64,000 nucleotides of DNA from Gemmatimonadaceae bacterium (GTDB lineage Bacteria; Gemmatimonadota; Gemmatimonadetes; Gemmatimonadales; Gemmatimonadaceae), in contig JBHYGA010000005.1 in the NCBI GenBank assembly GCA_051859245.1, forward strand, positions 641,413 to 705,412, given 5' to 3'. Each line of letters opens with the position of its first letter. Position 1 is the stretch's first letter. Both the position numbers and the translations under genes were made by a program. The notes beneath the pieces were generated by a model. It did not search any database, was not told the origin of the DNA, and saw only the letters and a list, made by a program, of their open reading frames with translations. Positions 10,134 through 50,357 of this stretch are shown in pieces.

Positions 10134-10222
10134 CGGAGGAAGCGGGATTCGAACCCGCGATAGGGTGTTACCCCTATGCCGGTTTAGCAAACCGGTGCCT
10201 TCAGCCTCTCGGCCATCCCTCC
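10134..10222 (-). tRNA. tRNA-Ser(GCT)
   Basis: GGAGGGATGGCCGAGAGGCTGAAGGCACCGGTTTGCTAAACCGG...GGGTTCGAATCCCGCTTCCTCCG; long variable arm; G73; CCA not encoded. Confidence 0.97.
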
Positions 10223-11915: not shown

Positions 11916-11953
11916 GATTGTTGCAGCTCACATGGAACAACACGTGCGGATTA

Positions 11954-12040
11954 CGGCGCGGGTGAGATTCGAACTCACGAGACCCTTTCGGGTCCGCCGG
12001 TTTTCAAGACCGGTGCATTCAACCACTCTGCCACCACGCC
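11954..12040 (-). tRNA. tRNA-Ser(TGA)
   Basis: GGCGTGGTGGCAGAGTGGTTGAATGCACCGGTCTTGAAAACCGG...GTTCGAATCTCACCCGCGCCG; long variable arm; CCA not encoded. Confidence 0.97.
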
Positions 12041-12050
12041 AACTGCGCCG

Positions 12051-12118: not shown

Positions 12119-13837
12119 CTACGGTTTTGCCTTCGCGAGCGATGAATCGCGTGCGGCCTTGAACTCGGCCCCGGAGCTCCACGTGGGCCACGTTGGCATA
12201 TGCGCGACGCGCCATCCGACTTCAAGCAATGCGCGGGCGTCGTCGGCCGCGCCGCTCAGGTCCCAATCGGCCTTGATGTCGTCACTCGGTTTGTGATAGT
12301 CGTTGGCAACGTATTCCTCTCGCTTGGATTTGCCGAAGCCCGCGGGCTTGTCGATGAAATCGCTGCCTGCGTTGATGTAGAGCGCGGGAACCCCCTTCTT
12401 GGCGAACTCGAAGTGGTCGCTGCGAAAGAAATAGCCCTTTGACGGTTCGGGGTCAGGTGAGAGCGTACGGTTCGTCGCCGTCGCAACAGATCGCAACACA
12501 TCATCGAGCGAGCTGTTTCCTAAACCAACCACGGTGATGTCGCGCGTGCGTCCCCACTGATTCGCGCCATCCATGTTGATGTTGGCCACCGTTTTGGTGA
12601 GCGGATACAACGGGTTTTCCGCGTACCATTTCGCACCGAGCAACCCTTGTTCCTCGGCGGTCAGGGCGATGAACAGTTGCGAGCGAGGCGCTCGTTCGGG
12701 CAGCGCGGCGAGCGCACCGGCGATTTCGATCAACGACGCGGTGCCTGTGCTGTTGTCCAATGCACCATTGAAGATCTGGTCGCCCTGATGCATGGTGTCG
12801 CGGCCGAGATGATCCCAGTGCGCCGTGTACACCACGTACTCGTCTTTCAACACCGGATCCGATCCTTCAAGCCTGGCGACCACGTTGCGTGACTGCACTT
12901 CGCGCACGCTATTCGTGATGGTGAAGTTCGCGGTTGCATTGAGTGGAACCGGAGCGAACGCTCTGGTCGCCGCCAGTGTTTTCAGGGAATCAAAGTTGAG
13001 CCCCGCATTGGCAAACAGCGTGTCAGCGTAGCCGCGAGAGATCCATCCTTCCACCTGCACGCGACCCGCGGGTCCGCCCGGCACGTTCACATCAAAGTTT
13101 TCGCGGCCCCAGCTGTTGATCACCGTGAGATACGGATAGCCGGCTGGCTCCGTCTCGTGCACAATCAACGCCCCTGCGGCACCGCGCGCGGACGCCTGTT
13201 CGAACTTGTACGTCCATCGGCCGTAGTAGCTCATCGCGTTGCCTTTGAACACCGTTGCATCGAGCGAGTCACTGCCTGACGCTTTGATCGGCGGATCATT
13301 CACCAGAATCACTACCGTCTTGCCTTTCACATCAACGTTCTTGAAGTCATCCCAGTCGAACTCGGGCGCGGTGACGCCATAACCCACAAAGACGAGTTCA
13401 CTGTTCTCCAGTGACACCGTGGGCTGCGGATGACGGGAGCCCACCACATAGTCCATGGGAAAGCGTAAACGCGTGCTCGCGCCGTTTTGCGTGATCGCTC
13501 CTTCGGGTCGTGACGTGATTCCTACGAGGCTGACGTTTTGTATGTACGTGCCGTCCGGATTGCCTGGTGCGAGTCCCAGCGCTTTGAACTGCGCTTCGAG
13601 ATACCGCACGGTTCGCTCCTCGCCCACGCCGCCGGGCGCACGGCCTTCCATGGAATCATCCGCAAGCACCCGTACGTGCCGCATGATGCCCTCGGCGGTG
13701 AGTGCATCACGCGCTGGCGCGACCGTACTGGCATCGGGCACGCCGTCATCTCCGGTGGCGCCGCCGCACGCAATGAATGACACAGCGGCCGCGCAGAGCA
13801 GCGCCGCGCGGCGAACGGAATGCAAAGGAGTGTTCAT
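12119..13837 (-). CDS. M28 family metallopeptidase lipoprotein with PA domain
   Basis: Lipobox FIAC; AHWDHLG, NGALDN, TAEEQGLLG, NINMD, FRSDH, YHKPSD. Confidence 0.92.
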   Translation of the reverse strand: MNTPLHSVRRAALLCAAAVSFIACGGATGDDGVPDASTVAPARDALTAEGIMRHVRVLADDSMEGRAPGGVGEERTVRYLEAQFKALGLAPGNPDGTYIQNVSLVGITSRPEGAITQNGASTRLRFPMDYVVGSRHPQPTVSLENSELVFVGYGVTAPEFDWDDFKNVDVKGKTVVILVNDPPIKASGSDSLDATVFKGNAMSYYGRWTYKFEQASARGAAGALIVHETEPAGYPYLTVINSWGRENFDVNVPGGPAGRVQVEGWISRGYADTLFANAGLNFDSLKTLAATRAFAPVPLNATANFTITNSVREVQSRNVVARLEGSDPVLKDEYVVYTAHWDHLGRDTMHQGDQIFNGALDNSTGTASLIEIAGALAALPERAPRSQLFIALTAEEQGLLGAKWYAENPLYPLTKTVANINMDGANQWGRTRDITVVGLGNSSLDDVLRSVATATNRTLSPDPEPSKGYFFRSDHFEFAKKGVPALYINAGSDFIDKPAGFGKSKREEYVANDYHKPSDDIKADWDLSGAADDARALLEVGWRVAHMPTWPTWSSGAEFKAARDSSLAKAKP

Positions 13838-14742: not shown

Positions 14743-15834
14743 TTACCAATCGAGACGCATAATGCGTCCGCGACCGCCCACCCAGGCGGATTTTCCAAAC
14801 GCATCAACACCGGCGAAACCCTGATCCGAATGGGTGGTCCAGGTGCGTCCGCCGTCGATACTGCTGAAGACGCCACCAAAGCCCGCCGCGACCACCGTCT
14901 GCGAGCCGGCATCCGGCACCCAGGTGATCCCCGTGAGCGCGCCGGGAAGGGGCGGGCGTTGACGCAGCGACCACGTACGCCCACCGTCTTGTGTGACGGC
15001 GACGACGGCAGATGCACTATCGCCGCGCAGGTTGGTCATGTCGCCGGCCACGCCGATACCAATGTTCGCGTCGCGAAACGCGAGTCCGCTGGTGCCAGCA
15101 CTCGCGCTCCGCACAAATGGTGTCTCACGCACGGCGAATGTGGCGCCGGCATCATCACTGATAAACAAACGCGAACCTGGACCACCGGTGGCGACGAATA
15201 CGCGTTCGCCTGCGTGCACGACACAGCGGCCGCTCGCTGCATACGCGCCTTCACCGCTGAGCGGCGCGGGAACCGCCGATTCCGGAAGTAACGACCACTG
15301 TGCGCCACCATTCGTAGTACGAAGAATGTGGGTGCGTCCGTGGGCCGCGTCGCCAAACACCACGCCGCGCTGGCTATCGAGGAAGGTGAAGCAGTCGTAG
15401 AACGCGGCGCTGTCGCGGTTGCGAAACTGTTCACGCCACGACACGCCACCATCTGTGGTGTGATAAATGCGCGACGCTTCGCCGTTGCCAATCGCCAACG
15501 CGAACGCGGTATCTGCGCCAAACGCATGAATATCGCGAAACTGGAGCGAGTCACCACCGGATACAGGACGCGCTTCCCATGAGGTGCCCCCGTTCACGGT
15601 GCGCAAAATCGTACCGCCGGTTCCGGATGCCCACACTACGCTGTTCGACACCGCGTGCACAGCAAAGATCAGCGCATTTCCGCTGAATGTTTGTGTGGTA
15701 ACGCGAGGCGTCGTGGCTGTTTGCGCGTGTGTGCGCAGCGGTGTCGCGGCCAGCGCGCACACGCTCAATGTCAACGCAGAGCGCATGGTGCGGCGAATGA
15801 TTGCGGTCATGACTAATTCCGTAGAGGCGCTCAT
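14743..15834 (-). CDS. Secreted BNR/Asp-box beta-propeller protein (Ycf48-like)
   Basis: Repeated TxDGGxxW Asp-boxes; ATG 15834 overlaps the upstream stop. Start could also be 15810 or 15786. Confidence 0.8.
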   Translation of the reverse strand: MSASTELVMTAIIRRTMRSALTLSVCALAATPLRTHAQTATTPRVTTQTFSGNALIFAVHAVSNSVVWASGTGGTILRTVNGGTSWEARPVSGGDSLQFRDIHAFGADTAFALAIGNGEASRIYHTTDGGVSWREQFRNRDSAAFYDCFTFLDSQRGVVFGDAAHGRTHILRTTNGGAQWSLLPESAVPAPLSGEGAYAASGRCVVHAGERVFVATGGPGSRLFISDDAGATFAVRETPFVRSASAGTSGLAFRDANIGIGVAGDMTNLRGDSASAVVAVTQDGGRTWSLRQRPPLPGALTGITWVPDAGSQTVVAAGFGGVFSSIDGGRTWTTHSDQGFAGVDAFGKSAWVGGRGRIMRLDW

Positions 15835-18185
15835 GGCGAACGCGGTGCTGGCGTGTCGATGCGTGGTAGCGCATTGGGCACTGCACGCGGTCCAACCGGT
15901 TGGTCTGCCGGCACGCGTTCGAGGTCCAATCGGTCGAGACCAAATACACGCTCGCGTCGCATGGCGCGCGCGATCGCGCGTGACTGTTCGAATACGCTGT
16001 CGGACTGGGCAAGCTGTCCGGCATTGGCGAGTGCTTCGGAAATGGTGAGTCCGGTCATGACATACAGATCCGGTATGCCGACAGACGCGTCGTCTACCCA
16101 TCCGTTGCGCAGCGCCAGTGAATGCCGGGCGTCAAACGCATCGCGCCAGAGCGCGGCACTGCGCGTGACATCCACGTAGCCTTCGCCCTCGACCACCACT
16201 ACATCGTCGCTGGCGCTCACGGGCACTTCGTTCACACGACGGGCCAAGCCCTGGGCCACAAGATACGGTTCAAAGCCAAGCGTCACCGGCAATCCGCCGG
16301 CTGTTCGACTGAAATACATGGGGCGATCTGGCCACGAATCCCGCATGAGGAAATACAGCAACACGTCGGACCGCATGAGTGAACCGCCGCGCGCGGTGGC
16401 CACCAGTTCGTTCTTCTGAAACGTGCGTTGGTCGCCGAGCTCTACGTAAAGCGGAATCGCATCGGCTTCGTCAAACGAGATGCGAAGCGCTGAGCCTTCA
16501 GGTTTTTTCCAGCTGCGATTGCGGTACACGACGGGGCCGGCGAGGCTGTCGTATTCGTACACCGGGCGCCGAATGATTTGTCGTGTGTACCAGTCCGTAT
16601 TGAGGAGCGATGTATTCACCACCAGCACATCTCGGCGCACCCCTTCTACTTCCTGCGCGTACCAGAGCGGAAATGTGTCATTGTCTCCAACCGTGACGAG
16701 CATGCCGTACGGCTCAACGGAGTTGAGCAAGTCGCGTGCGAAATCCGCCGTATCCGTTTGTGCGCCTCGCGACGCCTGACTCCAGTTGCCAATCGCCGGC
16801 AAGCACGCCACCAGCAACAGCGGAGAGGCCAACAGAAAGTTGCGCGGTGACGGGATTGCCAGCGTTTCGCGGCCGTGTTTGACCTGCTCCGTGCCAATCA
16901 GGCTGGCGACCGATTCCCACAGGTACACAAGTCCGAGTGCCGCCCACACGCTCCACGCAGAGAACGCCCACAAATAGAAATAGTCTCGATCGCGCACCTC
17001 ACGGTCTACACTGCCACCGAGTGCGGGCGCTTGAGAGTATCCGTACTTGAAGTTGAGGTAATAGATCAGCCCCAACGTCATGATGAATACAAGCGGCCCG
17101 AAGTACCAGAAGCTGCGTCGATCTTTTTGGTAGTGTACCCATCCTCCGAGCAGCCCGGTGATCAGAAAGAACACGCCCAGCGCGTTCTGCAATTGTGGTC
17201 GCTCACCGTACGCGTCGCGCCAGTACTGCCACTTGAAGTACAGCCAATACATGCCAACCTGCGCCGTAAGCGGTGCCTGACGTTCCGTGAGCTCGGGCTT
17301 GCCGTACTGACCACGGTTGAAGTTGTACATGAATCGATCGTACGTGAGCTTGCTGAACGTACAGTCGACTGCGATTTCCGTGACGCACCCGGTTGGCTCC
17401 CCTTCGTTGATCGCGGGGAAGTGCGCGGCGCGAATGGGCTGTGTGGCGAACGGCGTGATGCCAAAGAACAACGCGGCGCCGCACGCGAGCAGCAGTTTCC
17501 ACTTGAGCAACGTGCGTGGACTTCGCACCAGCACCGCCATGCCCACCGCCGGCGCGGCAAGCATGCCCGCCATGTGGTTGGCGTAGCCAAGACCGAGCAG
17601 GTACGCCACGAGCACCAGCAATCGATCCGCCCCGGCATCATCGGGGTCATCGCACCAGCGCACCGTGAGCCACGAAATCGCGGCGATGCCAAGCAGTGAT
17701 ACTGTGTAGACCTTCTCGTTCACCACCGACTGATTCCACACCGTGAATGCGGTGGAGCCAAGAACCGCGGAGAGCGCGGCTCCGGTGAGTCGCTGCCAAC
17801 GCTGCGTGAGCATGCTCACGAGCACACGTTCGGTAATCAGAAACCAGAAGAACGCTGACGCGGCACTGGAGAGGGCGGCCAGCACATTGATACGCATGGC
17901 CACCGACGGCGCCAACGGCAGCAACGCGAACACGCGCCCAATGAGTACAAACAGCGGATTACCCGGCGGATGCGGAATCCCAACCCCGTAGGCCGCCGCA
18001 ATGTACTCACTGGTGTCCCACATGCTTGTGGTTGGCGCCAGTGTCAGGATGTACAACAACATGACCGCGCACGCGGCGAGACCTGCGGCGCGGTACGATG
18101 GGGTGTAGTCGAGCTCCGTGCGCAACACGCGCCCCGTGTCCGGCGTGCTCGGCGAGTCGGATACGCTGGGTGCCTGGGCTGTCAT
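15831..18185 (-). CDS. DUF2723 / TMEM260-like multi-TM glycosyltransferase
   Basis: TLAPT.S.WD.SEYI, HPPGNPLF, EKVY, EVRDRDYFY, GDNDTFPLWYAQEVEG.R.DV, SLLNTDWY. Confidence 0.88.
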   Translation of the reverse strand: MTAQAPSVSDSPSTPDTGRVLRTELDYTPSYRAAGLAACAVMLLYILTLAPTTSMWDTSEYIAAAYGVGIPHPPGNPLFVLIGRVFALLPLAPSVAMRINVLAALSSAASAFFWFLITERVLVSMLTQRWQRLTGAALSAVLGSTAFTVWNQSVVNEKVYTVSLLGIAAISWLTVRWCDDPDDAGADRLLVLVAYLLGLGYANHMAGMLAAPAVGMAVLVRSPRTLLKWKLLLACGAALFFGITPFATQPIRAAHFPAINEGEPTGCVTEIAVDCTFSKLTYDRFMYNFNRGQYGKPELTERQAPLTAQVGMYWLYFKWQYWRDAYGERPQLQNALGVFFLITGLLGGWVHYQKDRRSFWYFGPLVFIMTLGLIYYLNFKYGYSQAPALGGSVDREVRDRDYFYLWAFSAWSVWAALGLVYLWESVASLIGTEQVKHGRETLAIPSPRNFLLASPLLLVACLPAIGNWSQASRGAQTDTADFARDLLNSVEPYGMLVTVGDNDTFPLWYAQEVEGVRRDVLVVNTSLLNTDWYTRQIIRRPVYEYDSLAGPVVYRNRSWKKPEGSALRISFDEADAIPLYVELGDQRTFQKNELVATARGGSLMRSDVLLYFLMRDSWPDRPMYFSRTAGGLPVTLGFEPYLVAQGLARRVNEVPVSASDDVVVVEGEGYVDVTRSAALWRDAFDARHSLALRNGWVDDASVGIPDLYVMTGLTISEALANAGQLAQSDSVFEQSRAIARAMRRERVFGLDRLDLERVPADQPVGPRAVPNALPRIDTPAPRSP

Positions 18186-18203
18186 GCGAGGCGCTCGGTG
18201 CGA

Positions 18204-19736
18204 TCAGTGACGGAAGAGTCGCTGTCCGGTGAACACCATTGTCATGCCGTGTTCGTCGGCGGCCGCAATGACCTCTGCATCACGCACTGATCCACCTGGT
18301 TGCACCAGTGCCGTCACACCCGCGGCGGCCGCGTGGTCTACACCATCGCGGAACGGAAAGAACGCATCGGAGCCAAGCGCCGCACCGGCGGTGAGATGTC
18401 CGGCCAGCTGCGCTTTGTGCACGGCCAGAAAACTCGCGTCAACGCGCGACATCTGGCCGGCACCGATGCCGATCGTGGCACCATCACGCGCCAGAACAAT
18501 GGCGTTTGATTTGACGCTCGCCACGGCCCGCCAGGCGAACGCGAGGTCGCGCTGCTCCGCCGCCGTTGGCTGACGTTTCGACACCACGTTCCATCCTTTC
18601 TCAAGGGCCGGTACCGTCATGCGATCCTGCACGAGCAGGCCGCCGCGCACACGCTTGTAGTCCATGTCACCGGCGGCCCAACGCGCGTTGCCTTCAAGTA
18701 CACGCAGATTCTTCTTGCGTCCGAGAATTTCAACCGCGGCGTCGCTGAATGCGGGTGCGACAATGCACTCGACGAACAAACTGGCAATGGCTTCGGCTGC
18801 CGCTTCATCAATAGGAACGGTAAACGCGATCACCGAACCAAAGGCCGATACCGGATCGCACGCCAGCGCGCGTTTGTACGCATCGAGTGCACTCTCGCCA
18901 ATCGCGAGTCCGCAGGGTGTGGTGTGTTTGATAATTGCGCAGCACGGCTCATGACCAAACGGCTCAGTCGCGAGCATCGCACCCTCAAGATCGAGCAAGT
19001 TGTTGAAGCTCAGTTCCTTGCCACCTTTCTGTACCAGCCCGCCCAGCCCGCGCGCGTTGGGTTCCACGTAAAACGCGGCGCGCTGACTTGGATTTTCACC
19101 GTACCGCAATGCCTGTCGCTTGGTGAATGCGAGCGGATAGGTTTCCGGAAACGGCTCGTCGCGGCGCATCGCAAACCACTGCGCGATGGCGGCGTCGTAG
19201 CTGCTGGTGTGCGCGTACACTTTTTCGGCCAGCAGGCGACGGAGTGGCTGATCATCGCCGCCTCCCGCAATCACATCGAGCACACGCGTGTAGTCTGATG
19301 GGTCCACGAGCACCCACACCGCCGCGTGATTCTTGGCAGCCGACCGCAGCATGGACGGACCACCAATGTCAATGTTCTCGATGGCATGTTCATCGGTCAC
19401 ATCTGGGCGCGCCACGGTTTCGCGGAACGGATAGAGATTCACGCACACGAGATCGATCGGCGCGATGTTGTGCTCGCTGAGTGCCTGCATGTGCTCCGGC
19501 ACATCGCGGCGCGCCAGCAGTCCGCCGTGCACAACAGGATGCAGTGTCTTTACGCGACCGTCGAGCATTTCCGGAAAACCGGTCACGTCTGCTACATCGG
19601 CCACTTGCAGACCCGCATCGCGCAGCGCGCGTGACGTTCCACCCGTGGAGATCAGGTCCCAGCCGAGCGACGCGAGGCGCGTGGCAAGTTCAACAACACC
19701 GGTTTTGTCAGAGACAGAAAGCAGAGCGCGAGGCAC
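18204..19736 (-). CDS. purH: Bifunctional AICAR transformylase / IMP cyclohydrolase
   Basis: RALLSVSDKTG, GRVKTLHP, ENIDIGGP, LRYGENP, SDAFFPF, LFRH. GTG start at 19736. Confidence 0.97.
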   Translation of the reverse strand: MPRALLSVSDKTGVVELATRLASLGWDLISTGGTSRALRDAGLQVADVADVTGFPEMLDGRVKTLHPVVHGGLLARRDVPEHMQALSEHNIAPIDLVCVNLYPFRETVARPDVTDEHAIENIDIGGPSMLRSAAKNHAAVWVLVDPSDYTRVLDVIAGGGDDQPLRRLLAEKVYAHTSSYDAAIAQWFAMRRDEPFPETYPLAFTKRQALRYGENPSQRAAFYVEPNARGLGGLVQKGGKELSFNNLLDLEGAMLATEPFGHEPCCAIIKHTTPCGLAIGESALDAYKRALACDPVSAFGSVIAFTVPIDEAAAEAIASLFVECIVAPAFSDAAVEILGRKKNLRVLEGNARWAAGDMDYKRVRGGLLVQDRMTVPALEKGWNVVSKRQPTAAEQRDLAFAWRAVASVKSNAIVLARDGATIGIGAGQMSRVDASFLAVHKAQLAGHLTAGAALGSDAFFPFRDGVDHAAAAGVTALVQPGGSVRDAEVIAAADEHGMTMVFTGQRLFRH

Positions 19737-19753
19737 AGGCAGAGTGGATAAGG

Positions 19754-20515
19754 TCAGCGAGCAAACAAGTGAGCGACATCTTCCGCGAACGGTTCGCGGT
19801 CCTGCGGTGATTCTGCGGCCGCATCGTCTGCTTTGCATGCCAGCTGGAAGCGACGAGCGCGCGGCAAGGTGGCGGTGTGGCCGTTGATCTGGCCGGACAC
19901 GCGACCGTCGGCGTTGAGCGACAGCGTGCCCGCCGCAACGGCTTCAACCACGAGCGGCAACAGTTGATGTTCGATACGTAGCACGCGCTGCGCAAGCGTG
20001 GCCGGTGTATCGTCCGGGTAGACGGGCACAGGCCACTGCGCGGCGATCGTTCCGCGATCGAAATGGTCATCCACAAAGTGCACGGTGGCGCCCGAGATGC
20101 GCACACCGGCGTTGATAACCGCGGTGTGAACACGCATGCCGTACATGCCGGCGCCGCCGAATGCCGGAAGCAGCGACGGATGCACATTCAGCAAACGTCC
20201 CGGCCAGGCAGCGACCACTTCGCTTGGCACCAGCTTGAGATATCCGGCCAGCACCACAAGATCGATCTGTGCGTCGTGCAACAACGTGCGAAGTGCCACA
20301 CCATCGCGCGGATCGGTAATCACCTGCGTGGCGATGCCCCGCGTTGCGGCGCGGGTGAGGGCGCCCGCTGCTGCATTGTCCGACGCAACGAGTGCGATCG
20401 TTCCAGCGGCGGCCGCGTGTGGCTGCGCAAAATGTTCGAGCAGCGATTCCAGATTGGAGCCACCACCCGAGGCAAGCACGGCTATGCGCATGGGACTGAT
20501 GTGGTGAACGTTCAC
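19754..20515 (-). CDS. purN: Phosphoribosylglycinamide formyltransferase
   Basis: IAVLASGGGSNL, LAGY, NVHPSLLP, GATVHFV. Start is 20515 (coupled) or 20491. Confidence 0.95.
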   Translation of the reverse strand: MNVHHISPMRIAVLASGGGSNLESLLEHFAQPHAAAAGTIALVASDNAAAGALTRAATRGIATQVITDPRDGVALRTLLHDAQIDLVVLAGYLKLVPSEVVAAWPGRLLNVHPSLLPAFGGAGMYGMRVHTAVINAGVRISGATVHFVDDHFDRGTIAAQWPVPVYPDDTPATLAQRVLRIEHQLLPLVVEAVAAGTLSLNADGRVSGQINGHTATLPRARRFQLACKADDAAAESPQDREPFAEDVAHLFAR

Positions 20516-21108
20516 GCGGGTGCGTTCAAGGTGGCGAGAAAGTGGGTGACCGCATCGCCGAGCGATGGCATGACGTAGGCCTGCGCGCGAGCCGAATCAA
20601 TGTCGTCCTGACTGGTATCAACACTCGGCACGAGCACGCCAAGTCCGCCTGTTTGCACGGCCGGGCTTACGTCCCGCCAGCGATCGCCAATGTAGGCCGA
20701 ACGCGAAAGGTCGAGGCCGTGCTCGGCGGCCGCGCGAACATACATGCCCAGGCCCGGTTTGCGACAGTCGCACGGTCCGGAAATCTCTGCCCAGTGTGGG
20801 CAATGATAGGTCGCATCAACGCGTGCGCCGGCCGCCGCGAGGTCAGACTCGACACGCGCTCGCACCTGCTGGTACTGCTGCTCGGTGAGCAGCCCACGGG
20901 AAATTCCCGATTGATTCGTTACCACGATCACCGGCACCTGCGCCGCGTTGCACAGCGCGAGCGCATCGGCCACGCCTGCGATGAGTCGAACACGATCAGG
21001 ATCTGACGGATAGTGCGTATCGATCATCAGCGTGCCGTCGCGGTCGACAAAACAAGCAGGTCGGCCCGTTGTTGACCTCGGTGCTGGTGTGGACACGCGC
21101 GCCGTCAC
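20512..21108 (-). CDS. gmhB: HAD-IIIA heptose-bisphosphate / histidinol phosphatase
   Basis: FVDRDGTL, VTNQSGI, CPH...CDCRKP, IGDRWRD. Confidence 0.85.
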   Translation of the reverse strand: MTARVSTPAPRSTTGRPACFVDRDGTLMIDTHYPSDPDRVRLIAGVADALALCNAAQVPVIVVTNQSGISRGLLTEQQYQQVRARVESDLAAAGARVDATYHCPHWAEISGPCDCRKPGLGMYVRAAAEHGLDLSRSAYIGDRWRDVSPAVQTGGLGVLVPSVDTSQDDIDSARAQAYVMPSLGDAVTHFLATLNAPA

Positions 21109-22487
21109 CTGCGTGCAGGCCCGGTGCGCACGACAGTATCCGGCGGCGGCGTTGAATCTCGCCGGGGCGTTGAGTCGCGAGGCGGCGCTGGATCGGCCTT
21201 GGGTGTGAGAATGGTTCGCGTGGCGCTGCCGCGCACACCATTCAGTGACTGCAGGTCACGCGTCTCGATCAGATAACGCGTGTTTGGTGTGAGCGGAGCG
21301 TCGAGCACCACCAGCATTTCGGTGGTCGGCACCGGGCGCGACATCTTGGGCGGTGGCGTGGTGTCGCGTGGAGCGTTGGGTCGCCCACCTCGCAACGTGA
21401 GCAATCGGCGCGCTTCGCGCTGCGCTATTTCTGCGGCGGCCAGGCTATCGCGACGGCGCGCTCTTGCCACGCTGTCAGCGCGTGCCAGCGCCGCACTGTC
21501 TGGTTTGATGGTATCACGCGCCGCCCGCAACGCGGCGATTGAATCCGCTTTTTGTTTGCGACTCAGCGAATCCATTACGAGCTGCTCTTCCTTCGTGCGG
21601 ACAATCACCACGCGTTGGGCGGCGGGCGCCGAGTCAGGCATGGTGCGCAGCGAAAACTGCGGCGGCGTGAACGTTTGTCCAATCGCGAGCGGCTTGTCGA
21701 ATGTCAAACGTAAGCGTCGTCCGCTGTCCTGAATCGCAATGTCAGAGATGCGAACCGGGAGGGTGTCGTGAATGAACGAGTAGAGCTCCACATTCGCGCT
21801 GTCGCGCAATGGAATGCGCACCGTGTCCCACAACTCCGTGCGTTCAAGCAGGCGATTGCCATTACGATCGAGAAACCCGCGCACAATGTACTGACCCGGC
21901 GGAACGTAGCGCAGCGCAAACCGGCCGGCAGTGTCCGTCACGCCAATGTAGGCCAGCGTCGTATCAACCACCGAAATCGCTTCCACAAGTGCGGTGCGCG
22001 CGCCGCGGCCGGCCGGCCAATCAAACACCACACCGGCTACGGTTGTGTTGGGAATTGGACCGCGCGTGGAAAACACGAGGGTCGTTGCGCTGTCGATGGA
22101 GTTGTTACGCAGGTCCTGAAGTCCCGGACGCATGATCACCGTGTAGACCGTGCTGTCCCGGAAACCGTCTTTGGCCTTGATGTCGAGACGCGATCGTTTC
22201 CAGTCCACTTCGACGTCGCCACTTCGCGGACTGATCAGGAACAGTTCGGCGAGTGACGTGGAACCTTTCGGCGCTTCGTTAATGACTTCATCGAACTGCA
22301 AGGTGATCACTTTCGGACGCACCGAGGTGTCGCCGTTTTGCGGCGTGACGCGCAGCAGTTCCGGCGAAAGCTCGTCTGGCGGACCACCGGTTGGCGCAAT
22401 CGCGTTCGCGCACGCAGCCGCGAGCCACGTTCCGAATGCGATGCAGGCCACAAGCAGTGCAGGGCGGCGCACCGACCGTACGCGCAT
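21105..22487 (-). CDS. Ig-like (Big_5) domain lipoprotein
   Basis: Lipobox LAAAC, then PTGGPPD..P, FDE, DLRNN; TGATG overlap with the valS stop. Confidence 0.8.
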   Translation of the reverse strand: MRVRSVRRPALLVACIAFGTWLAAACANAIAPTGGPPDELSPELLRVTPQNGDTSVRPKVITLQFDEVINEAPKGSTSLAELFLISPRSGDVEVDWKRSRLDIKAKDGFRDSTVYTVIMRPGLQDLRNNSIDSATTLVFSTRGPIPNTTVAGVVFDWPAGRGARTALVEAISVVDTTLAYIGVTDTAGRFALRYVPPGQYIVRGFLDRNGNRLLERTELWDTVRIPLRDSANVELYSFIHDTLPVRISDIAIQDSGRRLRLTFDKPLAIGQTFTPPQFSLRTMPDSAPAAQRVVIVRTKEEQLVMDSLSRKQKADSIAALRAARDTIKPDSAALARADSVARARRRDSLAAAEIAQREARRLLTLRGGRPNAPRDTTPPPKMSRPVPTTEMLVVLDAPLTPNTRYLIETRDLQSLNGVRGSATRTILTPKADPAPPRDSTPRRDSTPPPDTVVRTGPARR

Positions 22488-25240
22488 CAGCTCCCCAACC
22501 GGGTGATACGCTCGAGCAACTGCGCATGACGTGCACGCCATTCTTCAGCTTTCGCACGCTCCGCCTCCACCAATGCAGGTGGCGCCTTGGCGGTGAACTT
22601 CTCGTTGGCGAGTCGGCCATCAAGCGCCTGGAGTTGTGTAAACAGCTGTTCAGCCTCGGTTTGCAGTCGACGTCGTTCCTTATCGAGATCCACCATACCC
22701 GCGAGCGGGACGATGAGTTCAAAGCCGTCGCGCAACAGCGCTTGCGCGGCGGCTCCGGCTGGAACGTTCGCCGACAGTGTCATGCGAGAGCGTGACATCG
22801 TGCCCGCGATGCTAGCGAGCTGCGAAAACTCCGCCACGCGCTCAGCGGGTGCGACCAGTGTCGCATCGACCGGCTGGCCGGGGGGCACATTGTACTCGGA
22901 GCGAATCTGTCGAAGTGCGGTGACCGACAGTCGCACGATCTCAAAATCATCGCCGCCCGCGAGTTGGGCGTCCGCCGGACGCGCCGTGGGCCACGGTGCG
23001 TTTGCGCAGTAGGACGACGGACGCGGCAACGGAATGCGTTGCCACAGTTCTTCGGTGATGAAAGGAATGATCGGGTGCAACAAACGAAGCGCCGCGTCGA
23101 ACGCGTGGGCCAGCACGGTGCGCGCGACTTCGCGATCGTCGCCCTCCACTGCGAGACGCGGCTTGACCGACTCGAGATACCAATCGGCCAGTTCGTTCCA
23201 CACAAAGCGCCGCGCTGATTCGGCGTACTCCGCCAAACGCAAACCACGCAGGCGCTCCGCATCACTCCACGCACCGCTGCCAGGACGCGCCGGACCAAGC
23301 GCGGCGTCGCAGTCTTTCACGGCTTCATCGAGACGATCAAGAATCCACCGATCCGCAGCGGTGAGGCGCGCGGCATCGATTTGCTCAAGCGGAGTCACGG
23401 GGGCCGAGCCAACGCGTGACAAAAGAAAACGACCGATATTCCACAACTTCGTGCAGAAGTTGCGGCCCGGCGCAAACGATTTGTCGAGATCGTCCGGATC
23501 GAGCATCACATCCACACCGAGCCCGAGGCCGGCGATCACTGTCCATCGCAGTGCGTCCGCGCCGTAGTCGCGCACGACGTCCAGCGGATCAATGCCGTTG
23601 CCGAGCGACTTGGACATTTTGCGGTGCTGCATGTCGCGCACGGTGCCGTGCAAGTACACCGTATGGAACGGTGACTTGCCCATGAACCATTCGCCGGCCA
23701 TCACCATGCGGGCCACCCAGAAGAACAGAATTTCCGGTGCGGTGACGAGCACATCACTTGGATAGAACGCCTTCAGATCAGGCGCGTCTTCATTGGGCCA
23801 GCCGAGCGTGCTCATGGGCCAGAGCCACGACGAGAACCACGTGTCGAGCACGTCGTCGTCCTGGCGCACCGCACCGCCGCACCTGGTACACGCCGTGATG
23901 TCATCACGACTCACAATGGGTTCCGTGCCACACGCGTCGCAGTACCACACCGGAATGCGATGGCCCCACCAGAGCTGCCGCGAAATATTCCAGTCGCGAA
24001 TGCCCTCGAGCCAGTTCACGTACACCGCTTCCCAGCGCTCCGGCAGAATGCGCAGCTCACCCGTTCGCAGTGCGGCCAGCGCTTTGTCCGCCAACGGCTG
24101 CATGCGCACGAACCACTGGTCCGACAAGCGCGGCTCCACCACCGTGTCGCAGCGATAACAATGACGCACGCTGTGATCATGCGCGTCGATCTTCTGCAGC
24201 ACGCCTGACTGCGTGAGCAGCGCCACGATCTGTTTGCGTGCTTCAAAACGATCGAGTCCACGCAACGCGTCCGGCACGCGGCCGTCGGCGTCGGTGACTT
24301 CACGCACCACGCCTTCGGCATCAATGACAACCGGCATCGCAAGCGCGTGACGCTTGCCCACTTCAAAATCGTTCGCGTCGTGCGCTGGCGTAATTTTTAC
24401 CGCACCCGATCCGAACGCCGGATCGGTGTACGGATCCGCAATGACCGGAATGCGAACGTTCGACAGCGGCAGCAACAGTTGCTTGCCCACGAGATCACGA
24501 TACCGCGCATCGTCAGGATGCACGGCCACGGCCACGTCACCGAGCATGGTCTCGGGGCGCGTGGTGGCCACCGTAATGCCACGCGTTGGATCGTCGGCCA
24601 GCGGATAGCGCAGATGGTACAGCTTGCCGGCCGTATCGTTGAACTCGGCTTCTTCATCCGAGAGCGATGTCCCGCAGCGCGTGCACCAGTGAATGACGCG
24701 GTGGCCCTTGTACACCAATCCGTCTTCATGCAAACGCACAAACGCTTCGCGCACCGCGCGCGAAAGTTCGGGCGAGAGCGTGTACGCCGTGCGTGTAAAG
24801 TCTGCCGACGCACCAATCGATTTGAGCTGCTGCAGAATCGTGCCGCCGGTTTCGGCCACAAACTGCGCCGTGCGCGCCACAAACGCGTCGCGCCCCAGAT
24901 CAAAGCGCGTCTGACCGTCGCGCGCGACCTGTTTCTCCACCACGTTCTGCGTAGCAATGCCGGCGTGATCCGTGCCGGGCATCCAGAGCGCTTCGTCGCC
25001 GGCCATGCGGCGCCAGCGAATGAGCACATCCTGCACGCTGTTATTGAGACCGTGGCCCATGTGCAGAACGGCCGTCACGTTGGGCGGCGGAATCATGACT
25101 ACGAAGGACGGGCGCGTGGCCGCGCGGGCCGGATCGGCGATGAACACGCCATCGGCGGTCCAGCGATCGTACCAGGTGCGTTCCATGGACGACGGCTCGA
25201 AAGTCGCCGGCAATTCGTCGAGGTTGGTGTATCCGGTCAT
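22487..25240 (-). CDS. valS: Valine--tRNA ligase
   Basis: PPPNVT.LHMGH, DWNISRQLWWGHRIP, KMSKS, C-terminal coiled coil. Confidence 0.98.
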   Translation of the reverse strand: MTGYTNLDELPATFEPSSMERTWYDRWTADGVFIADPARAATRPSFVVMIPPPNVTAVLHMGHGLNNSVQDVLIRWRRMAGDEALWMPGTDHAGIATQNVVEKQVARDGQTRFDLGRDAFVARTAQFVAETGGTILQQLKSIGASADFTRTAYTLSPELSRAVREAFVRLHEDGLVYKGHRVIHWCTRCGTSLSDEEAEFNDTAGKLYHLRYPLADDPTRGITVATTRPETMLGDVAVAVHPDDARYRDLVGKQLLLPLSNVRIPVIADPYTDPAFGSGAVKITPAHDANDFEVGKRHALAMPVVIDAEGVVREVTDADGRVPDALRGLDRFEARKQIVALLTQSGVLQKIDAHDHSVRHCYRCDTVVEPRLSDQWFVRMQPLADKALAALRTGELRILPERWEAVYVNWLEGIRDWNISRQLWWGHRIPVWYCDACGTEPIVSRDDITACTRCGGAVRQDDDVLDTWFSSWLWPMSTLGWPNEDAPDLKAFYPSDVLVTAPEILFFWVARMVMAGEWFMGKSPFHTVYLHGTVRDMQHRKMSKSLGNGIDPLDVVRDYGADALRWTVIAGLGLGVDVMLDPDDLDKSFAPGRNFCTKLWNIGRFLLSRVGSAPVTPLEQIDAARLTAADRWILDRLDEAVKDCDAALGPARPGSGAWSDAERLRGLRLAEYAESARRFVWNELADWYLESVKPRLAVEGDDREVARTVLAHAFDAALRLLHPIIPFITEELWQRIPLPRPSSYCANAPWPTARPADAQLAGGDDFEIVRLSVTALRQIRSEYNVPPGQPVDATLVAPAERVAEFSQLASIAGTMSRSRMTLSANVPAGAAAQALLRDGFELIVPLAGMVDLDKERRRLQTEAEQLFTQLQALDGRLANEKFTAKAPPALVEAERAKAEEWRARHAQLLERITRLGS

Positions 25241-25309: not shown

Positions 25310-26011
25310 TTAATCGGCGCGCGGCGGAGATGCCGCATCAAGTGGATCGGCGGGTGGTCGCGCGTCGGTCGCGCGCCGCGCCCGGGCCGGCTTGCGAACG
25401 GTCAGTTGGTCAACCACGTGAAACACATCGGGGACGCCACGCGCAATCGTGATCGCATGCTCGACCTCGGCGTCGGAGTGGACCCAACCAGTCAATTCAA
25501 TCACACCGGTCGCGATGGCACCAATATCAATCGCGCGCTCGCGCAGGATCGGATCGTGATGGAACGCTTCCAGCACTCGGGCCTCGAGCGTCAGCACATC
25601 CGGCGCCGACGCACGCTGTGCGGCCGAAGCGCCCCCACTGCGGACTTTCCGATCCTCGGCGCGGGTAGACCCCACGTGTAGATGCGCAACGGACTCCGGC
25701 GACAGATCGTCGTCGTGGTCGTCGTCATGCGCATCGTCGTGGTCGTACTCATGGTCGGCTTCGTCCAGCAGCTCGTCGGCGTCCTCATAGCCACCGTCGG
25801 CATCATGCAGACCGTAGGGGAGCTCCTGCGTCTCCTCGGCGCTTTCAGCGCCGGCTCGCCTGAGGGAAGCGCGGCCGCGTTTCACAAGGCGATCCAGTCC
25901 GCCGAGACGATCCGCGAGCAGAGCGCCCGCGACGGCGCCCGCGGCGACGCCGAGGGAGAGCAGCAGCAGGCTATTGGGACGCGAGGACTTACGCATGGTT
26001 CGACGGGGCAC
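25310..26011 (-). CDS. BON domain protein with N-terminal membrane anchor and Asp/His-rich linker
   Basis: GVIELTGWV...ARGVPDVFHVVDQL BON pattern; DEADHEYDHDDAHDDDHDDD tract. Confidence 0.8.
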   Translation of the reverse strand: MPRRTMRKSSRPNSLLLLSLGVAAGAVAGALLADRLGGLDRLVKRGRASLRRAGAESAEETQELPYGLHDADGGYEDADELLDEADHEYDHDDAHDDDHDDDLSPESVAHLHVGSTRAEDRKVRSGGASAAQRASAPDVLTLEARVLEAFHHDPILRERAIDIGAIATGVIELTGWVHSDAEVEHAITIARGVPDVFHVVDQLTVRKPARARRATDARPPADPLDAASPPRAD

Positions 26012-30078: not shown

Positions 30079-31632
30079 ATGATGATTCTCGCAAAATCGC
30101 TTCGCCACGCGGCTGGTTGCCTCCTCGTTGGCTCCACCGCGTTCGCGGGTCTGGCGTCCGCCCAGGCGCCCACCGGCTTGCTCTCGCTGAGCGTGCGCCA
30201 CAATACGCTCAAGAACACCGCGCGCCCCACCGGAGAGACCAAGGCGCAGGTTGATTCGCTGGATCGCCTGATCGCACAGGCGAACAGACTTGGACGCTCC
30301 GCCGAGGTGCGTCGACTGTACGCGCACGCCAACGCGCTGCTTACACGCCGGCCGTGGACCGCGGAATCTGAATACGCGGCCTCGCTCGTGCTGCGCACCG
30401 ATCGCCAGGTGGTGGATCCCGCCGTGCGGTGGCCGGTGCGTGTTGAGCAGATCTTCGCGCCGTCGGTGGAACTGCTGCGCCCGCTCAGCGCGCGTGCGAC
30501 GTTGCGACAGCGTGCCGCCGGCGCGGCGGCGAATGCGCCACTGACGGTTGTGAAAGAACTTGGCACCTTTGACGGGGTGCCACGCGATCTGCGCGACGCA
30601 CCGTTTGTGATTGACGCCGACTTGAACAGCGTGCCCGATGGCACGTATCTCGTGGCCGTTGACGTGCTCGACAGCACGCGCACACTCGGCACCGCCACGC
30701 TCAGCATTGTGGTGCGCAATGGCCTCGATGCCTCCGTGGCGCGATTGCAGCAAGCGGCGAGCACCGTGAGCGAACCGCTACGCTCTGATTTGCTGTTCCC
30801 GGTGGACCGGCTGCGTCACGTGAACAACAGTCGCATCGCGCTAAATACCTTCAACGCCGCGCGTGCGTTTGCCGCCGCAGAATCACTGCTGGTACGCATG
30901 GAGAGAACGCGCGATCCGTGGGCAGGTCGCACGGGCGATCTCAAGCGACACTATCTGCTCGACGCGGCGGGCGAAATCATGCCATACCGCTTGTACATCC
31001 CCAAGTCGTACACGCCCGGCACCGCCATGCCGCTGATCATCGCGTTGCACGGACTCGGCGCCACGGAAGATTCGTTCTTTGATGCGTATGGTCGCGTGCT
31101 GCCGCAACTCGCCGAGGAGCGTGGATACATTGTGGCCGCGCCGCTCGGCTATCGCGTGGACGGTGCATACGGTGTGTCGCTCACAGGAAGTCGCGATCCG
31201 GCCACGCAACGCACGCAAGCGCTGAGTGAGCAAGATGTGCTGCGCGTGCTTGAACAAGTGAAGGCCCAATACTCCGTAGACAATGATCGCGTCTTTCTGA
31301 TGGGCCATTCCATGGGCGCGATTGGCACCTGGGGCATGGCCGCGAAACGTCCGGAGCCGTGGGCCGGTCTGGGCGCATTCTCAGGCTTTGGCGTAGCGAG
31401 TACCGCGAGCACGTTGCGTGCGATTCCACAGTTTGTAGTGCACGGTGATGCGGATCCGACCGTTGCCGTGAGCGGCTCGCGCACCATGGTGGCGGCACTT
31501 AAGGAAGTCGGTGCGAACGTACGCTATATCGAGGTGCCCGGTGGTGATCACTCGAATGTGGTTGCGCCAAACCTTCCGGCGATGTTCGACTTCTTCGACG
31601 CGATTCCGCGTCGTGTAGCGAGTCCACGATGA
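30079..31632 (+). CDS. Secreted alpha/beta hydrolase (esterase/peptidase) with large N-terminal extension
   Basis: Signal peptide; PYRLYIP, ALHGLG, GHSMG, HGDADPTV, GGDH triad. Confidence 0.85.
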   Translation: MMILAKSLRHAAGCLLVGSTAFAGLASAQAPTGLLSLSVRHNTLKNTARPTGETKAQVDSLDRLIAQANRLGRSAEVRRLYAHANALLTRRPWTAESEYAASLVLRTDRQVVDPAVRWPVRVEQIFAPSVELLRPLSARATLRQRAAGAAANAPLTVVKELGTFDGVPRDLRDAPFVIDADLNSVPDGTYLVAVDVLDSTRTLGTATLSIVVRNGLDASVARLQQAASTVSEPLRSDLLFPVDRLRHVNNSRIALNTFNAARAFAAAESLLVRMERTRDPWAGRTGDLKRHYLLDAAGEIMPYRLYIPKSYTPGTAMPLIIALHGLGATEDSFFDAYGRVLPQLAEERGYIVAAPLGYRVDGAYGVSLTGSRDPATQRTQALSEQDVLRVLEQVKAQYSVDNDRVFLMGHSMGAIGTWGMAAKRPEPWAGLGAFSGFGVASTASTLRAIPQFVVHGDADPTVAVSGSRTMVAALKEVGANVRYIEVPGGDHSNVVAPNLPAMFDFFDAIPRRVASPR

Positions 31633-32903
31633 ACACATCAATGATGGCGCACGTGGCGCGCACGCGACGCAACAGCGTGCTCATTGCGCTTTCATTGTTC
31701 AGCGCCGCCTGCGCGCAAACCGCCGACGCGCCTCAGCTTGACAGCGCCGCCGCCGAAGCAAGCAATCGAGACTACCTCTACGTGTGGACCGCCTCGGCCG
31801 ACACCACGCAAGCGGATTTTCTCGCCGTGCTCGATGTGACCGAAGACTCAGTGCGGTACGGTTCGCTCGTGACCACGCTACCGGTGCCCGGACTCAAGAA
31901 CGGTCCGCACCACACTGAACATGAAATGCCGGCCGACGCGCAGCTGTTCGCGAATGGGTTCGCGTCCGGTCAAACCGTGGTGTTCGACTTGCGCAATCCC
32001 ATCGCGCCGCGCATTGCCACAACCTTTGGCGACGTGGAGGGCTTCGCACATCCGCACTCGTTTGTGCGCATGCCCGGCGGCAACGTGCTCGCTACATTCC
32101 AGATGCAGCACGATACCACCGGTATGAAACCCGGCGGTCTCGTAGAACTGACGCCGGCCGGTAGCGTGGTGCGGAGTCGCTCGGCGAATGCACCGGGCAT
32201 TGATGCGGGACTGCGCGTGTATAGCGCCGCCGTGGTCTCGCCCCTTGATCGCATTGTCAGCACGACCAGCGACATGATGGCCGACTCGCCCGCGTCGCGG
32301 AACCTGCAAATCTGGCGACTCTCGGATATGTCGCTGCTGCACACGATCACCTTGCCTGACGGTCCGCTCGGTGGTGAATCGCAGCTTACCGCCGAGCCGC
32401 GCGTGCTTGCCGACGGTCGCAGTGTGCTCGTGTCTACGTTTAACTGCGGACTCTATTTGCTCGACGGACTCGATACCGATCAGCCGTCGGGGCGACTGGT
32501 GGCGTCGTTCCCGCGAATGGAGGGCGAGTACTGCGCCATACCGGTGATTGTTGGGCGCTACTATCTCGTGGCCGTGCCCGCGTGGAATGCCGTGGTGAGT
32601 CTCGATATTTCCGATCCGGCCACGCCGCGCGAAGTGAGCCGACTCACGCTCGGCAAACAAGACATTCCGCACTGGATCGCGGTGTCTCCCAATCAGAAAC
32701 GTCTGGTGATCACCGGCTACTCGGCGCTGCAGCATCGCATTCAGATCGCAACGTTTGATACGGCGAGTGGACAGCTCGCACTCGATGAACGCTTTCGTGA
32801 AGCGGACAGTCTGCCGCCGGGCTTTCGCCTGGATAACAAAACGTGGCCGCACGGCGGAACGGCACAAGGCGTTCCTCACGGAGCGGTGTTCAGTCGTCGG
32901 TAG
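31629..32903 (+). CDS. SBP56 / methanethiol-oxidase-like beta-propeller lipoprotein
   Basis: Lipobox SAAC; DFLAVLDV..DS..YG.LV...P....PHH N-terminal pattern; HPHSF, PHW, PHG. Confidence 0.7.
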   Translation: MNTSMMAHVARTRRNSVLIALSLFSAACAQTADAPQLDSAAAEASNRDYLYVWTASADTTQADFLAVLDVTEDSVRYGSLVTTLPVPGLKNGPHHTEHEMPADAQLFANGFASGQTVVFDLRNPIAPRIATTFGDVEGFAHPHSFVRMPGGNVLATFQMQHDTTGMKPGGLVELTPAGSVVRSRSANAPGIDAGLRVYSAAVVSPLDRIVSTTSDMMADSPASRNLQIWRLSDMSLLHTITLPDGPLGGESQLTAEPRVLADGRSVLVSTFNCGLYLLDGLDTDQPSGRLVASFPRMEGEYCAIPVIVGRYYLVAVPAWNAVVSLDISDPATPREVSRLTLGKQDIPHWIAVSPNQKRLVITGYSALQHRIQIATFDTASGQLALDERFREADSLPPGFRLDNKTWPHGGTAQGVPHGAVFSRR

Positions 32904-39266: not shown

Positions 39267-39277
39267 TACTCCCCTCT

Positions 39278-50081: not shown

Positions 50082-50155
<74 letters not shown>

Positions 50156-50258: not shown

Positions 50259-50332
50259 GGCAGGGTAGCTCAGCTGGTTAGAGCACGGCACTCATAATGC
50301 CGGGGTCGCGGGTTCGAGTCCCGCCCCTGCTA
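50259..50332 (+). tRNA. Elongator tRNA-Met(CAT)
   Basis: GGCAGGGTAGCTCAGCTGGTTAGAGCACGGCACTCATAATGCCG...; lacks the C4/C5 acceptor features typical of tRNA-Ile2. Confidence 0.88.
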
Positions 50333-50357
50333 CTCGCGGTCAACACTGCGAATCACG

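Follow-up and report, generated by a model that had tools for sequence, protein, structure and literature searches.

Does a bacterium outside the Bacteroidota glycosylate its exported proteins at the tripeptide D-(S/T)-x, and is the transferase encoded close to the protein in which that tripeptide is densest? The question is posed by a window of 64,000 nt (the whole stretch of DNA analysed; G+C content ~62%) from a Gemmatimonadaceae bacterium (assembly GCA_051859245.1, contig JBHYGA010000005.1, positions 641,413-705,412), which encodes a motif-rich Ig-like (Big_5) lipoprotein and, nearby, a DUF2723 protein of the family of human TMEM260. The available parts of a 2025 review (PMC12871550) describe D-(S/T)-x as the only known bacterial O-glycosylation sequon and as confined to Bacteroidota. 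A sequence-only reading of the window had proposed that this organism O-glycosylates its envelope proteins at such sites, possibly by means of the DUF2723 enzyme. The results described here indicate that selection keeps and multiplies the tripeptide, and does so in exported proteins only. Sequon-directed O-glycosylation of exported and lipid-anchored proteins in this Gemmatimonadota organism is the reading towards which, with modest confidence, the identity of the selected residues leads.

Motifs of the form D-[ST]-[AILVMT] were counted in window proteins hand-classified by Pfam family and N-terminus, with signal peptides and spurious open reading frame (ORF) extensions removed before the pooled count; the expected number was the mean of 500 shuffles per protein. 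The 14 exported proteins contained 57 motifs as compared to 21.7 expected, a ratio of 2.63 (Poisson P = 2e-10), and without the Big_5 lipoprotein the ratio was 2.02 (39/19.4, P = 6e-5), whereas 23 cytoplasmic proteins contained 25 motifs as compared to 30.7 expected (0.81). Control patterns in the exported set were flat (E[ST]x 0.98, reversed motif 0.92, [ST]Dx 0.74 and D[ST][KRHWY] 0.46), and enolase and GlyA carried one and no motifs, respectively, with 1.2 expected in each. The hand counts of the sequence-only reading held up well: the 18 motifs on about 34 Asp residues of the lipoprotein were recounted as 18 on 34, and its figures for the TPR protein (7), multicopper oxidase (7), BNR protein (4), FtsB (2), enolase (1) and GlyA (0) recurred, with the M28 peptidase off by one (5 for about 4). 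Three exported proteins (2929-4215, 25310-26011 and 51295-52728) are motif-free. The single clear exception to the split between exported and cytoplasmic proteins is a cytoplasmic ORF resembling Glu/Leu/Phe/Val dehydrogenases (39071-40354), with 5 motifs against 1.3 expected; one of the five falls within a probably spurious N-terminal extension.

The densest carrier is the lipoprotein encoded at 21105-22487. Its likely start is M19 of the ORF (position 22487), giving a protein of 460 aa with the lipobox LAAAC and 18 motifs on 34 Asp residues as compared to 2.3 expected, a number reached in none of the 500 shuffles. A Big_5 Ig-like domain is followed by a CarboxypepD_reg-like beta sandwich, a third beta domain with an inserted helical hairpin and a disordered C-terminal tail. 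In the AlphaFold2 (AF2) model, built from an 11-row alignment (pLDDT 79.5, pTM 0.63; disordered segments 366-389 and 438-460), seven motifs lie in loops beside strands, one at a strand start, five in the hairpin, one in the hairpin loop and four in disordered segments, the hairpin being the less confident part. All of the 120 homologues listed (34-92% identity) have at least nine motifs (median 14, maximum 24, ~2.0 expected); pooled over these homologues the density is 7.18 times expectation, and 47% of all Asp residues begin a motif. The pattern E-[ST]-x with a hydrophobic third residue is depleted in the same homologues, being about five times rarer than expected (26 vs 121.2). An alignment of 11 orthologues revealed five sites at which the motif is kept in 9-10 sequences, with Ser and Thr, and the third residue, swapping inside the allowed set (DTT/DSL/DTV, DTL/DTT/DSL/DTV, DSA/DST). 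Motifs in the low-complexity tails are gained and lost at non-homologous places at constant density. One conserved lipoprotein family thus bears the tripeptide at about seven times chance density. Look-alike clusters of this family are also reported in Fibrobacterota, Bacteroidota and Zixiibacteriota. A fold search with the lipoprotein placed the S-layer proteins SbsC and SbsB first (TM 0.17); both consist of Ig-like domains strung together in a generic way, so nothing was drawn from them.

The best 80 of 644 relatives in a genome scan yielded 56 related loci (761 kb, 577 proteins), for which ORFs were picked by a self-trained codon-usage score and export was predicted by a heuristic signal-peptide and lipobox rule. 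In these loci, 90 predicted exported proteins contained 236 motifs against 98.0 expected (2.41), the 37 lipoproteins among them 141 against 41.9 (3.36), and 308 cytoplasmic proteins 268 against 255.6 (1.05). Bootstrapping by locus gave 1.71-3.12 for exported and 0.86-1.26 for cytoplasmic proteins, and seven control patterns in the exported proteins ranged from 0.61 to 1.13. The anticipated contrast in sequon frequency, judged against shuffled sequences, is therefore present in both the window (2.63 vs 0.81) and the 56 loci (2.41 vs 1.05), the excess being restricted to exported proteins, and the observation is confirmed and holds for a bacterial family and order. The host had also been taken to lie outside the Bacteroidota, and this is borne out, because all 56 loci are Gemmatimonadota and, for the DUF2723 protein, the sources of its closest homologues (68-85% identity) give the names Gemmatimonas, Gemmatimonadaceae or Gemmatimonadota. 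The lipoprotein family was then excluded and the loci were binned by identity of their DUF2723 protein to that of the window, with the following ratios.

DUF2723 identity of at least 50%, 23 loci: exported 62/26.7 = 2.32 (n = 28); cytoplasmic 1.01
DUF2723 identity of 40-49%, 15 loci: exported 36/22.5 = 1.60 (n = 26); cytoplasmic 0.95
DUF2723 identity below 40% (including Longimicrobiales), 18 loci: exported 29/33.7 = 0.86 (n = 28); cytoplasmic 0.88

Residue specificity was assessed by varying each motif position in turn in 103 exported and 331 cytoplasmic proteins. At position 1 of the exported proteins Asp alone was enriched (285/118 = 2.4; the next residue, Trp, reached 1.5). At position 2, Ser (3.2) and Thr (1.7) stood out from all other residues (at most 1.4). 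At position 3, enrichment was found for T (3.6), L (2.6), I (2.4), A (2.1), V (2.0), S (1.8) and M (1.5), and depletion for D, H, K, Q, W and P. Cytoplasmic proteins were flat at each position. After removal of the lipoprotein family, Asp and Ser still ranked first and T, L, A and I led position 3, and in an unbiased scan of 1202 tripeptides DSL, DST and DSA ranked 3, 5 and 25. D-S/T followed by a permitted third residue (AILVMT) gave 2.10 in exported and 1.12 in cytoplasmic proteins, as compared to 0.68 and 0.63 with S, C, G, F, N, E, Q, D or P in third place; the export-specific part is a surplus of D-S/T before a permitted residue. According to the available part of PMC10897501, the Bacteroidota motif was experimentally defined as D(S/T)(A/I/L/M/T/V) and later widened to S, and its third place is never R, H, K, W or Y. 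The enriched profile matches this sequon at each of the three positions in the scan of the 56 loci, in agreement with the earlier identification of the motif. What was compared is selection for the tripeptide, whose bare occurrence would be trivial.

Controls from other organisms were put through the same ORF and export pipeline as the Gemmatimonadota loci.

Escherichia coli K-12, 200 kb: exported 10/14.3 = 0.70 (n = 21); cytoplasmic 0.87
Sinorhizobium meliloti pSymB, 400 kb, high G+C: exported 29/40.4 = 0.72 (n = 44); cytoplasmic 0.62
Bacteroidales, 354 kb: exported 114/86.9 = 1.31 (n = 76); cytoplasmic 1.04; lipoproteins 1.53; reversed control 127/86.9 = 1.46
Hymenobacter: exported 5/9.8 (n = 6)

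The excess is not general to exported proteins or to G+C-rich genomes. The Bacteroidota failed as a positive control for enrichment, showing no sequon-specific excess.

Beyond the lipoprotein, the motif is carried by envelope proteins of several kinds, those of the window outside the lipoprotein gene run including:

1190-2932, plus strand: exported TPR/YbgF-like protein, 7 motifs against 2.1 expected
31629-32903, plus strand: SBP56/methanethiol-oxidase-like lipoprotein, 6 motifs against ~1.8-1.9
32954-34873, plus strand: multicopper oxidase, 7 motifs against 1.8
49669-50019, plus strand: FtsB/DivIC, membrane-anchored with a periplasmic domain, 2 motifs against 0.3

Conservation of the motif was pronounced in the multicopper oxidase, with 120 homologues (60-89% identity) carrying a median of 6 motifs (range 3-8) as compared to 1.6 expected. 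Its seven sites are kept in 105, 116, 118, 84, 45, 110 and 96 of the 120 homologues; S and T, and the third residue, swap inside the allowed sets, and losses are mostly to DSS, DTS, DSN or DSG. The orthologue of the TPR/YbgF-like protein in locus L009 has 7 motifs against 1.6 expected, and the motifs of this protein, like those of the lipoprotein hairpin, sit at or in predicted helices. The motif-richest proteins elsewhere (14 scanned) included YceG (3), MlaD (3), an ABC auxiliary lipoprotein, a GH16 protein and an LVIVD-repeat protein, among others. In exported proteins at large the motifs lean towards the N-terminal half (quintile counts of 43, 39, 32, 20 and 24). The signal peptides of these exported proteins drew a separate observation: by eye, eight of nine non-lipoprotein signal peptides in the window end in A-Q (e.g. 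SVFA-QS, THA-QT, SLSA-QD; ORFs 1190-2932, 2929-4215, 14743-15834, 30079-31632, 32954-34873, 50451-51272, 52803-53864 and 53871-54980), recalling the Bacteroidetes Q-rule. Such a rule is unsupported here, as a crude count over the loci gave 18 of 61 signal peptides, no higher than the 6 of 16 counted for E. coli or the 10 of 38 for S. meliloti.

A Pfam scan of 62 candidate ORFs placed the lipoprotein gene in a run of nine co-directional minus-strand genes (ValRS, Big_5 lipoprotein, HAD, purN, purH, DUF2723, BNR, bestrophin-like channel and M28 peptidase), confirming that the DUF2723 gene belongs to the same run. The members with assigned positions, all on the minus strand, are:

22487-25240: ValRS, by Pfam
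21105-22541: ORF of the Big_5 Ig-like lipoprotein (likely protein 21105-22487), by Pfam
20512-21108: GmhB-like HAD-IIIA phosphatase, between the lipoprotein gene and purN, by Pfam and below NCBIfam cut-offs
19754-20515: purN, by Pfam
18204-19838: purH, by Pfam
15831-18185: TMEM260-like/DUF2723 protein (PF11028) of 784 aa, Pfam E 6.3e-46
14743-15834: exported BNR/Ycf48-like beta-propeller protein, 4 motifs against ~1.3-1.6 expected
12119-13837: M28 peptidase lipoprotein, 5 motifs against ~2.0-2.1

The order ValRS, lipoprotein, HAD, purN, purH and DUF2723 recurs among the related Gemmatimonadota loci; the HAD phosphatase gene is part of this conserved run by synteny, and purH and purN (18204-20515) are housekeeping genes that separate the lipoprotein gene from DUF2723 and provide context only. 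In 19 of the 56 loci purH adjoins the DUF2723 match, and in 11 of these the lipoprotein gene is also there, including loci whose DUF2723 protein is only ~40% identical to that of the window; many of the remaining loci are short contigs or contain a second DUF2723 paralogue. The start codon of the BNR/Ycf48-like gene shares the sequence ATGA (15831-15834) with the stop codon of DUF2723, an overlap that suggests translational coupling. The DUF2723-BNR order is shared with the closest locus (L001) and not with more distant ones.

The window DUF2723 protein matched PF11028 at 156.8 bits (cut-off 24.2), and its relatives carry the source name 'glycosyltransferase family 117' (GT117). It matched the TMEM260 chain 9rql with an E value of 1.4e-14 as a single sequence and, as a 25-sequence profile over residues 27-480, of 1.3e-48. 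Residues D57, H72, R291, Y294, R400 and D501 align to TMEM260 D52, H67, R264, Y267, R355 and D441. None of the six varies among the 25 homologues, three Bacteroidota proteins and six further Gemmatimonadota proteins. The available portion of a preprint (bioRxiv 10.64898/2026.03.17.711096) reports that D52, H67, Y267 and R355 of TMEM260 contact the mannose of dolichyl-phosphate-mannose (Dol-P-Man), that R264 binds the phosphate, that the catalytic base is D441, located in the lumenal Rossmann-like domain, and that all six residues are essential. Because the contacts to the monosaccharide and the phosphate are conserved, the donor may be a polyprenyl-monophosphate-hexose. Around the predicted catalytic base, the sequence GDNDTFPLWYAQxVEG hardly differs between the DUF2723 proteins of Gemmatimonadota and those of Bacteroidota. 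An AF2 model (pLDDT 86.8, pTM 0.88) consists of a helical membrane core, an alpha/beta region (432-672) and terminal helices (673-743), and all 18 Foldseek matches at E<=0.001 were GT-C enzymes, with PglB first (TM 0.38/0.41) and no TMEM260 chain among the matches listed. No Pfam TPR was found in the window protein. By these sequence comparisons the protein qualifies as a bona fide GT117 GT-C homologue. A complex prediction of its residues 24-745 with lipoprotein residues 280-460 scored 0.00 against a mark of 0.32 and is no evidence either way.

Other DUF2723 genes were found in different settings. A second Gemmatimonadaceae paralogue lies directly downstream of an extracytoplasmic function (ECF) sigma factor and an AMPK1_CBM protein (L015, 8607-12205; L016, 8622-12214), and in three distant loci (L038, L039 and L047) DUF2723 comes after a hydantoinase/oxoprolinase gene. 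The Parabacteroides and Prevotella proteins (L058, 19938-24730; L059, 19962-24978) have ~1090 aa with weak C-terminal TPR matches, and their genes are followed, in identical order, by a polysaccharide deacetylase family gene and queG. A tblastn search of 72,556 plasmid records gave five DUF2723 matches, all from Bacteroidota.

These findings can be set beside the known systems. The tripeptide enriched here is identical, position by position, to that of Bacteroidota O-glycosylation, whose targets are likewise extracytoplasmic and chiefly lipoproteins, and DUF2723 proteins with a matching catalytic-site motif are encoded in both phyla. Bacteroidota and Gemmatimonadota both belong to the Fibrobacteres-Chlorobi-Bacteroidetes (FCB) group. 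The differences are the phylum, with the closest relatives of the window organism being Gemmatimonas or other Gemmatimonadaceae, and the strength of the signal, in that the motif is strongly over-represented here, with 9-24 copies in the lipoprotein family, whereas the Bacteroidales sample lacks a sequon-specific excess. No glycan locus of the lfg type was found among the 62 window ORFs (64 kb) or the 56 DUF2723 neighbours (19 loci). In the available parts of PMC12871550, the Bacteroidota linking sugar is given as a hexose (mannose), the transferase, core-glycan flippase and ligase are described as still undiscovered, and the pathway is said to resemble eukaryotic O-mannosylation, homologues of which should be sought. 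Other literature found on the Bacteroidota transferase went no further than calling it unknown. Within the library searched, the full text of one paper only mentions DUF2723, the TMEM260 discovery paper, which cites the model merely as a route to the human gene. In the same library, titles and the beginnings of abstracts on glycosylation in Gemmatimonas, Gemmatimonadetes or other FCB phyla contained nothing on the subject, in keeping with the earlier remark that no description of D-S/T glycosylation in this lineage was known to its author.

As described in the accessible parts of its sources, TMEM260 (GT117) is a protein O-mannosyltransferase of the endoplasmic reticulum acting on IPT domains (structures PDB 9RQL, 9RQM and 9RQN), which adds one unextended mannose from Dol-P-Man at the sequon Px6Px3Px2GGx3T on a beta strand. 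It shares with the window protein the Pfam family PF11028 and the six essential residues. In TMEM260 the GT-C core precedes a Rossmann-like domain and a helical lumenal domain, an arrangement to which the membrane core, alpha/beta region and terminal helices in the AF2 model of the window protein may correspond, on the periplasmic side. TMEM260 acts on Ig-like domains, the kind of domain with which the densest carrier here starts. The sequence after the catalytic Asp differs, reading GDLPGNSLRY in TMEM260 and GDNDTFPLWY in the window protein. PglB is also a periplasmic GT-C enzyme acting on a short sequon (D/E-X-N-X-S/T) with an acidic residue upstream of the acceptor, but its acceptor is Asn, its donor is a diphosphate-linked oligosaccharide and the likeness detected by Foldseek is one of GT-C fold only, without sequence relation. 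The PglL/PilO (Wzy_C) enzymes of Gram-negative bacteria similarly carry out general O-glycosylation, with periplasmic and surface proteins as their targets, and, according to the available parts of PMC12871550, have no strict sequon. A Pfam search detected no Wzy_C or O-antigen-ligase domain among the 62 window ORFs.

A mechanism can be proposed in which many exported and lipid-anchored proteins would be modified on the Ser or Thr of D-(S/T)-(A/I/L/V/M/T) following export to the periplasm, the modification being presumably an O-glycan. Initiation would fall to the DUF2723/GT117 GT-C enzyme, whose gene is the fourth downstream from that of the lipoprotein and which may take one hexose unit, probably mannose, off a polyprenyl-monophosphate donor and place it on the sequon residue. 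Enrichment by itself is no proof of glycosylation; the step to glycosylation is made because of the identity of the motif and not because of enrichment as such. The best reading is of a new lineage (Gemmatimonadales) for a known kind of system, with unusually strong sequon selection and a dedicated hyper-sequon lipoprotein. As the initiating transferase the DUF2723/GT117 protein is a well-founded candidate by sequence, if a tentative one, and its link to the motif is inferred from family identity and gene proximity. In the original proposal of D-S/T glycosylation, the motif excess stands as real, specific to export and residue order, Bacteroidota-like and conserved, while the enzyme link did not advance beyond this identity and proximity.

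Several results weigh against the proposed glycosylation or against the enzyme link. The case for glycosylation consists of sequence statistics throughout. In the Bacteroidales, a known positive, there was no sequon-specific excess in 354 kb (motif 1.31, below the reversed control at 1.46), so enrichment is not a known signature of the Bacteroidota system, and the step from enrichment to glycosylation is weakened accordingly. Under a first-order Markov null in the close group, the excess was similar in exported (1.40) and cytoplasmic (1.35) proteins, indicating that the preference for a hydrophobic third residue is general and not export-specific. The 56 loci are syntenic and eight lipoprotein orthologues give almost half of the pooled exported motifs; dropping them lowered the ratio from 2.41 to 1.53 (127/82.9, P = 4e-6). 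The heuristic export rule is home-made and, when applied to the window, called ThrRS exported and missed an esterase and the oxidase, misclassification of a kind that dilutes the contrast between exported and cytoplasmic proteins. Distant Gemmatimonadota that encode DUF2723 at below 40% identity (18 loci) lack the motif excess (29/33.7). Against the enzyme in particular, the DUF2723 family is broad (13,938 clusters at E<=0.001), and one genome has at least two paralogues (L001, L027). The genes around DUF2723 have housekeeping functions, and none of 56 neighbour proteins in 19 loci showed a glycosyltransferase or flippase domain. The long Pro/Gly-marked sequon of TMEM260 also differs from a tripeptide that starts with Asp and lies mostly in loops and disordered segments.

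The alternative that survives best, although we consider it somewhat doubtful, accepts that the sequon marks O-glycosylation and assigns the transfer to another enzyme encoded elsewhere in the genome, for example an oligosaccharyltransferase of the Bacteroidota type, with DUF2723 glycosylating a different class of protein or an envelope glycolipid or polymer. The gene context can be read both ways: among the 62 window ORFs Pfam recognises no glycosyltransferase besides DUF2723, which shares with the hyper-sequon lipoprotein a gene run conserved down to ~40% identity, yet none of its 56 neighbours carries a glycan-synthesis domain. The distribution favours a different transferase, since the family extends far beyond two phyla and distant Gemmatimonadota possess it without motif excess. 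Chemistry is similarly divided, in that the published Bacteroidota model, in the accessible parts of PMC12871550, has en-bloc transfer from a lipid-linked oligosaccharide and the residues here fit a monophosphate-monosaccharide donor, while the closest characterised relative of DUF2723 is a protein O-mannosyltransferase and the Bacteroidota linking sugar is mannose.

Selection of the tripeptide for a reason other than glycans appears unlikely, whether as the site of some different periplasmic modification of Ser/Thr adjoining Asp, as a signal recognised by a lineage-specific chaperone or protease, or as a structural capping motif preferred in the envelope proteins of this lineage. A capping motif would be enriched in cytoplasmic proteins also, and their ratio is 1.05; the placement of motifs at or in predicted helices of the TPR-like protein and lipoprotein hairpin, and the similar Markov-null excess in both compartments, nevertheless fit such a role. 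Many motifs lie in disordered tails and loops, with fast positional turnover at constant density, and the enriched residue sets coincide at all positions with an experimentally defined glycosylation sequon, which argues for glycosylation even though the phylum whose sequon is known to be glycosylated lacks enrichment and the excess fades inside the Gemmatimonadota. An artefact of composition, low complexity, gene-calling or repeated counting of related proteins is largely refuted and very improbable: orthologues do recur in syntenic loci, nearly half of the pooled motifs come from one family and signal-peptide calls were heuristic, but reversed and permuted controls of the same composition gave 0.74-1.13, the locus bootstrap excludes 1, the excess persists after removal of the lipoprotein family, the motif-richest proteins are classic envelope proteins (YceG, MlaD, GH16, ABC auxiliary lipoprotein) and two Proteobacteria gave 0.70-0.72 through the same pipeline.

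Selection of the same tripeptide in a second phylum would, if it reflects sequon-directed O-glycosylation, shift the origin of the system back within the FCB group, and Gemmatimonas would offer a culturable, non-host-associated model. DUF2723 supplies a concrete candidate transferase family, for which the alignment to a human homologue of solved structure already indicates the residues to mutate, and the hyper-sequon lipoprotein family is a ready-made reporter substrate. A wider and rather speculative proposal is that D-S/T-x glycosylation is initiated by DUF2723/GT117 in Bacteroidota and Gemmatimonadota alike, with the enzyme acting as a periplasmic protein O-mannosyltransferase fed by polyprenyl-phosphate-mannose. 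In that event the remaining glycan would be ligated onto the mannose, the system would be older than the phylum Bacteroidota, and the Gemmatimonadaceae would have pushed it furthest, with the lipoprotein family in effect a glycan carrier.

Further features of the window were recorded. The ORF that crosses its start (3-1193) has a long Gly/Gln-rich low-complexity beginning (GQQQQGQQQG...) and no Pfam family. A DinG-like helicase (4212-6794; DEAD_2, Helicase_C_2) has a weak N-terminal RadC-like JAB match (residues 25-89, E 1.5e-5). Two tRNA genes were found for Ser (GCT and TGA; 10134-10222 and 11953-12041) and two more, just downstream of ftsB and ~100 bases apart, for Met (CAT; 50082-50155 and 50259-50333). 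In the 273-aa product of ORF 50451-51272, a signal peptide is accompanied by a CarboxypepD_reg domain and a weak match to a TonB-receptor Plug, without a barrel; the gene after it is on the opposite strand, and the product could be either a receptor that has been truncated or a plug protein that functions by itself. The region 57861-62259, which may specify a small peptide or amide-bond pathway, contains genes for two ATP-grasp-like proteins, a C26 gamma-glutamyl peptidase and a GCS2 glutamate-cysteine-ligase-like protein.

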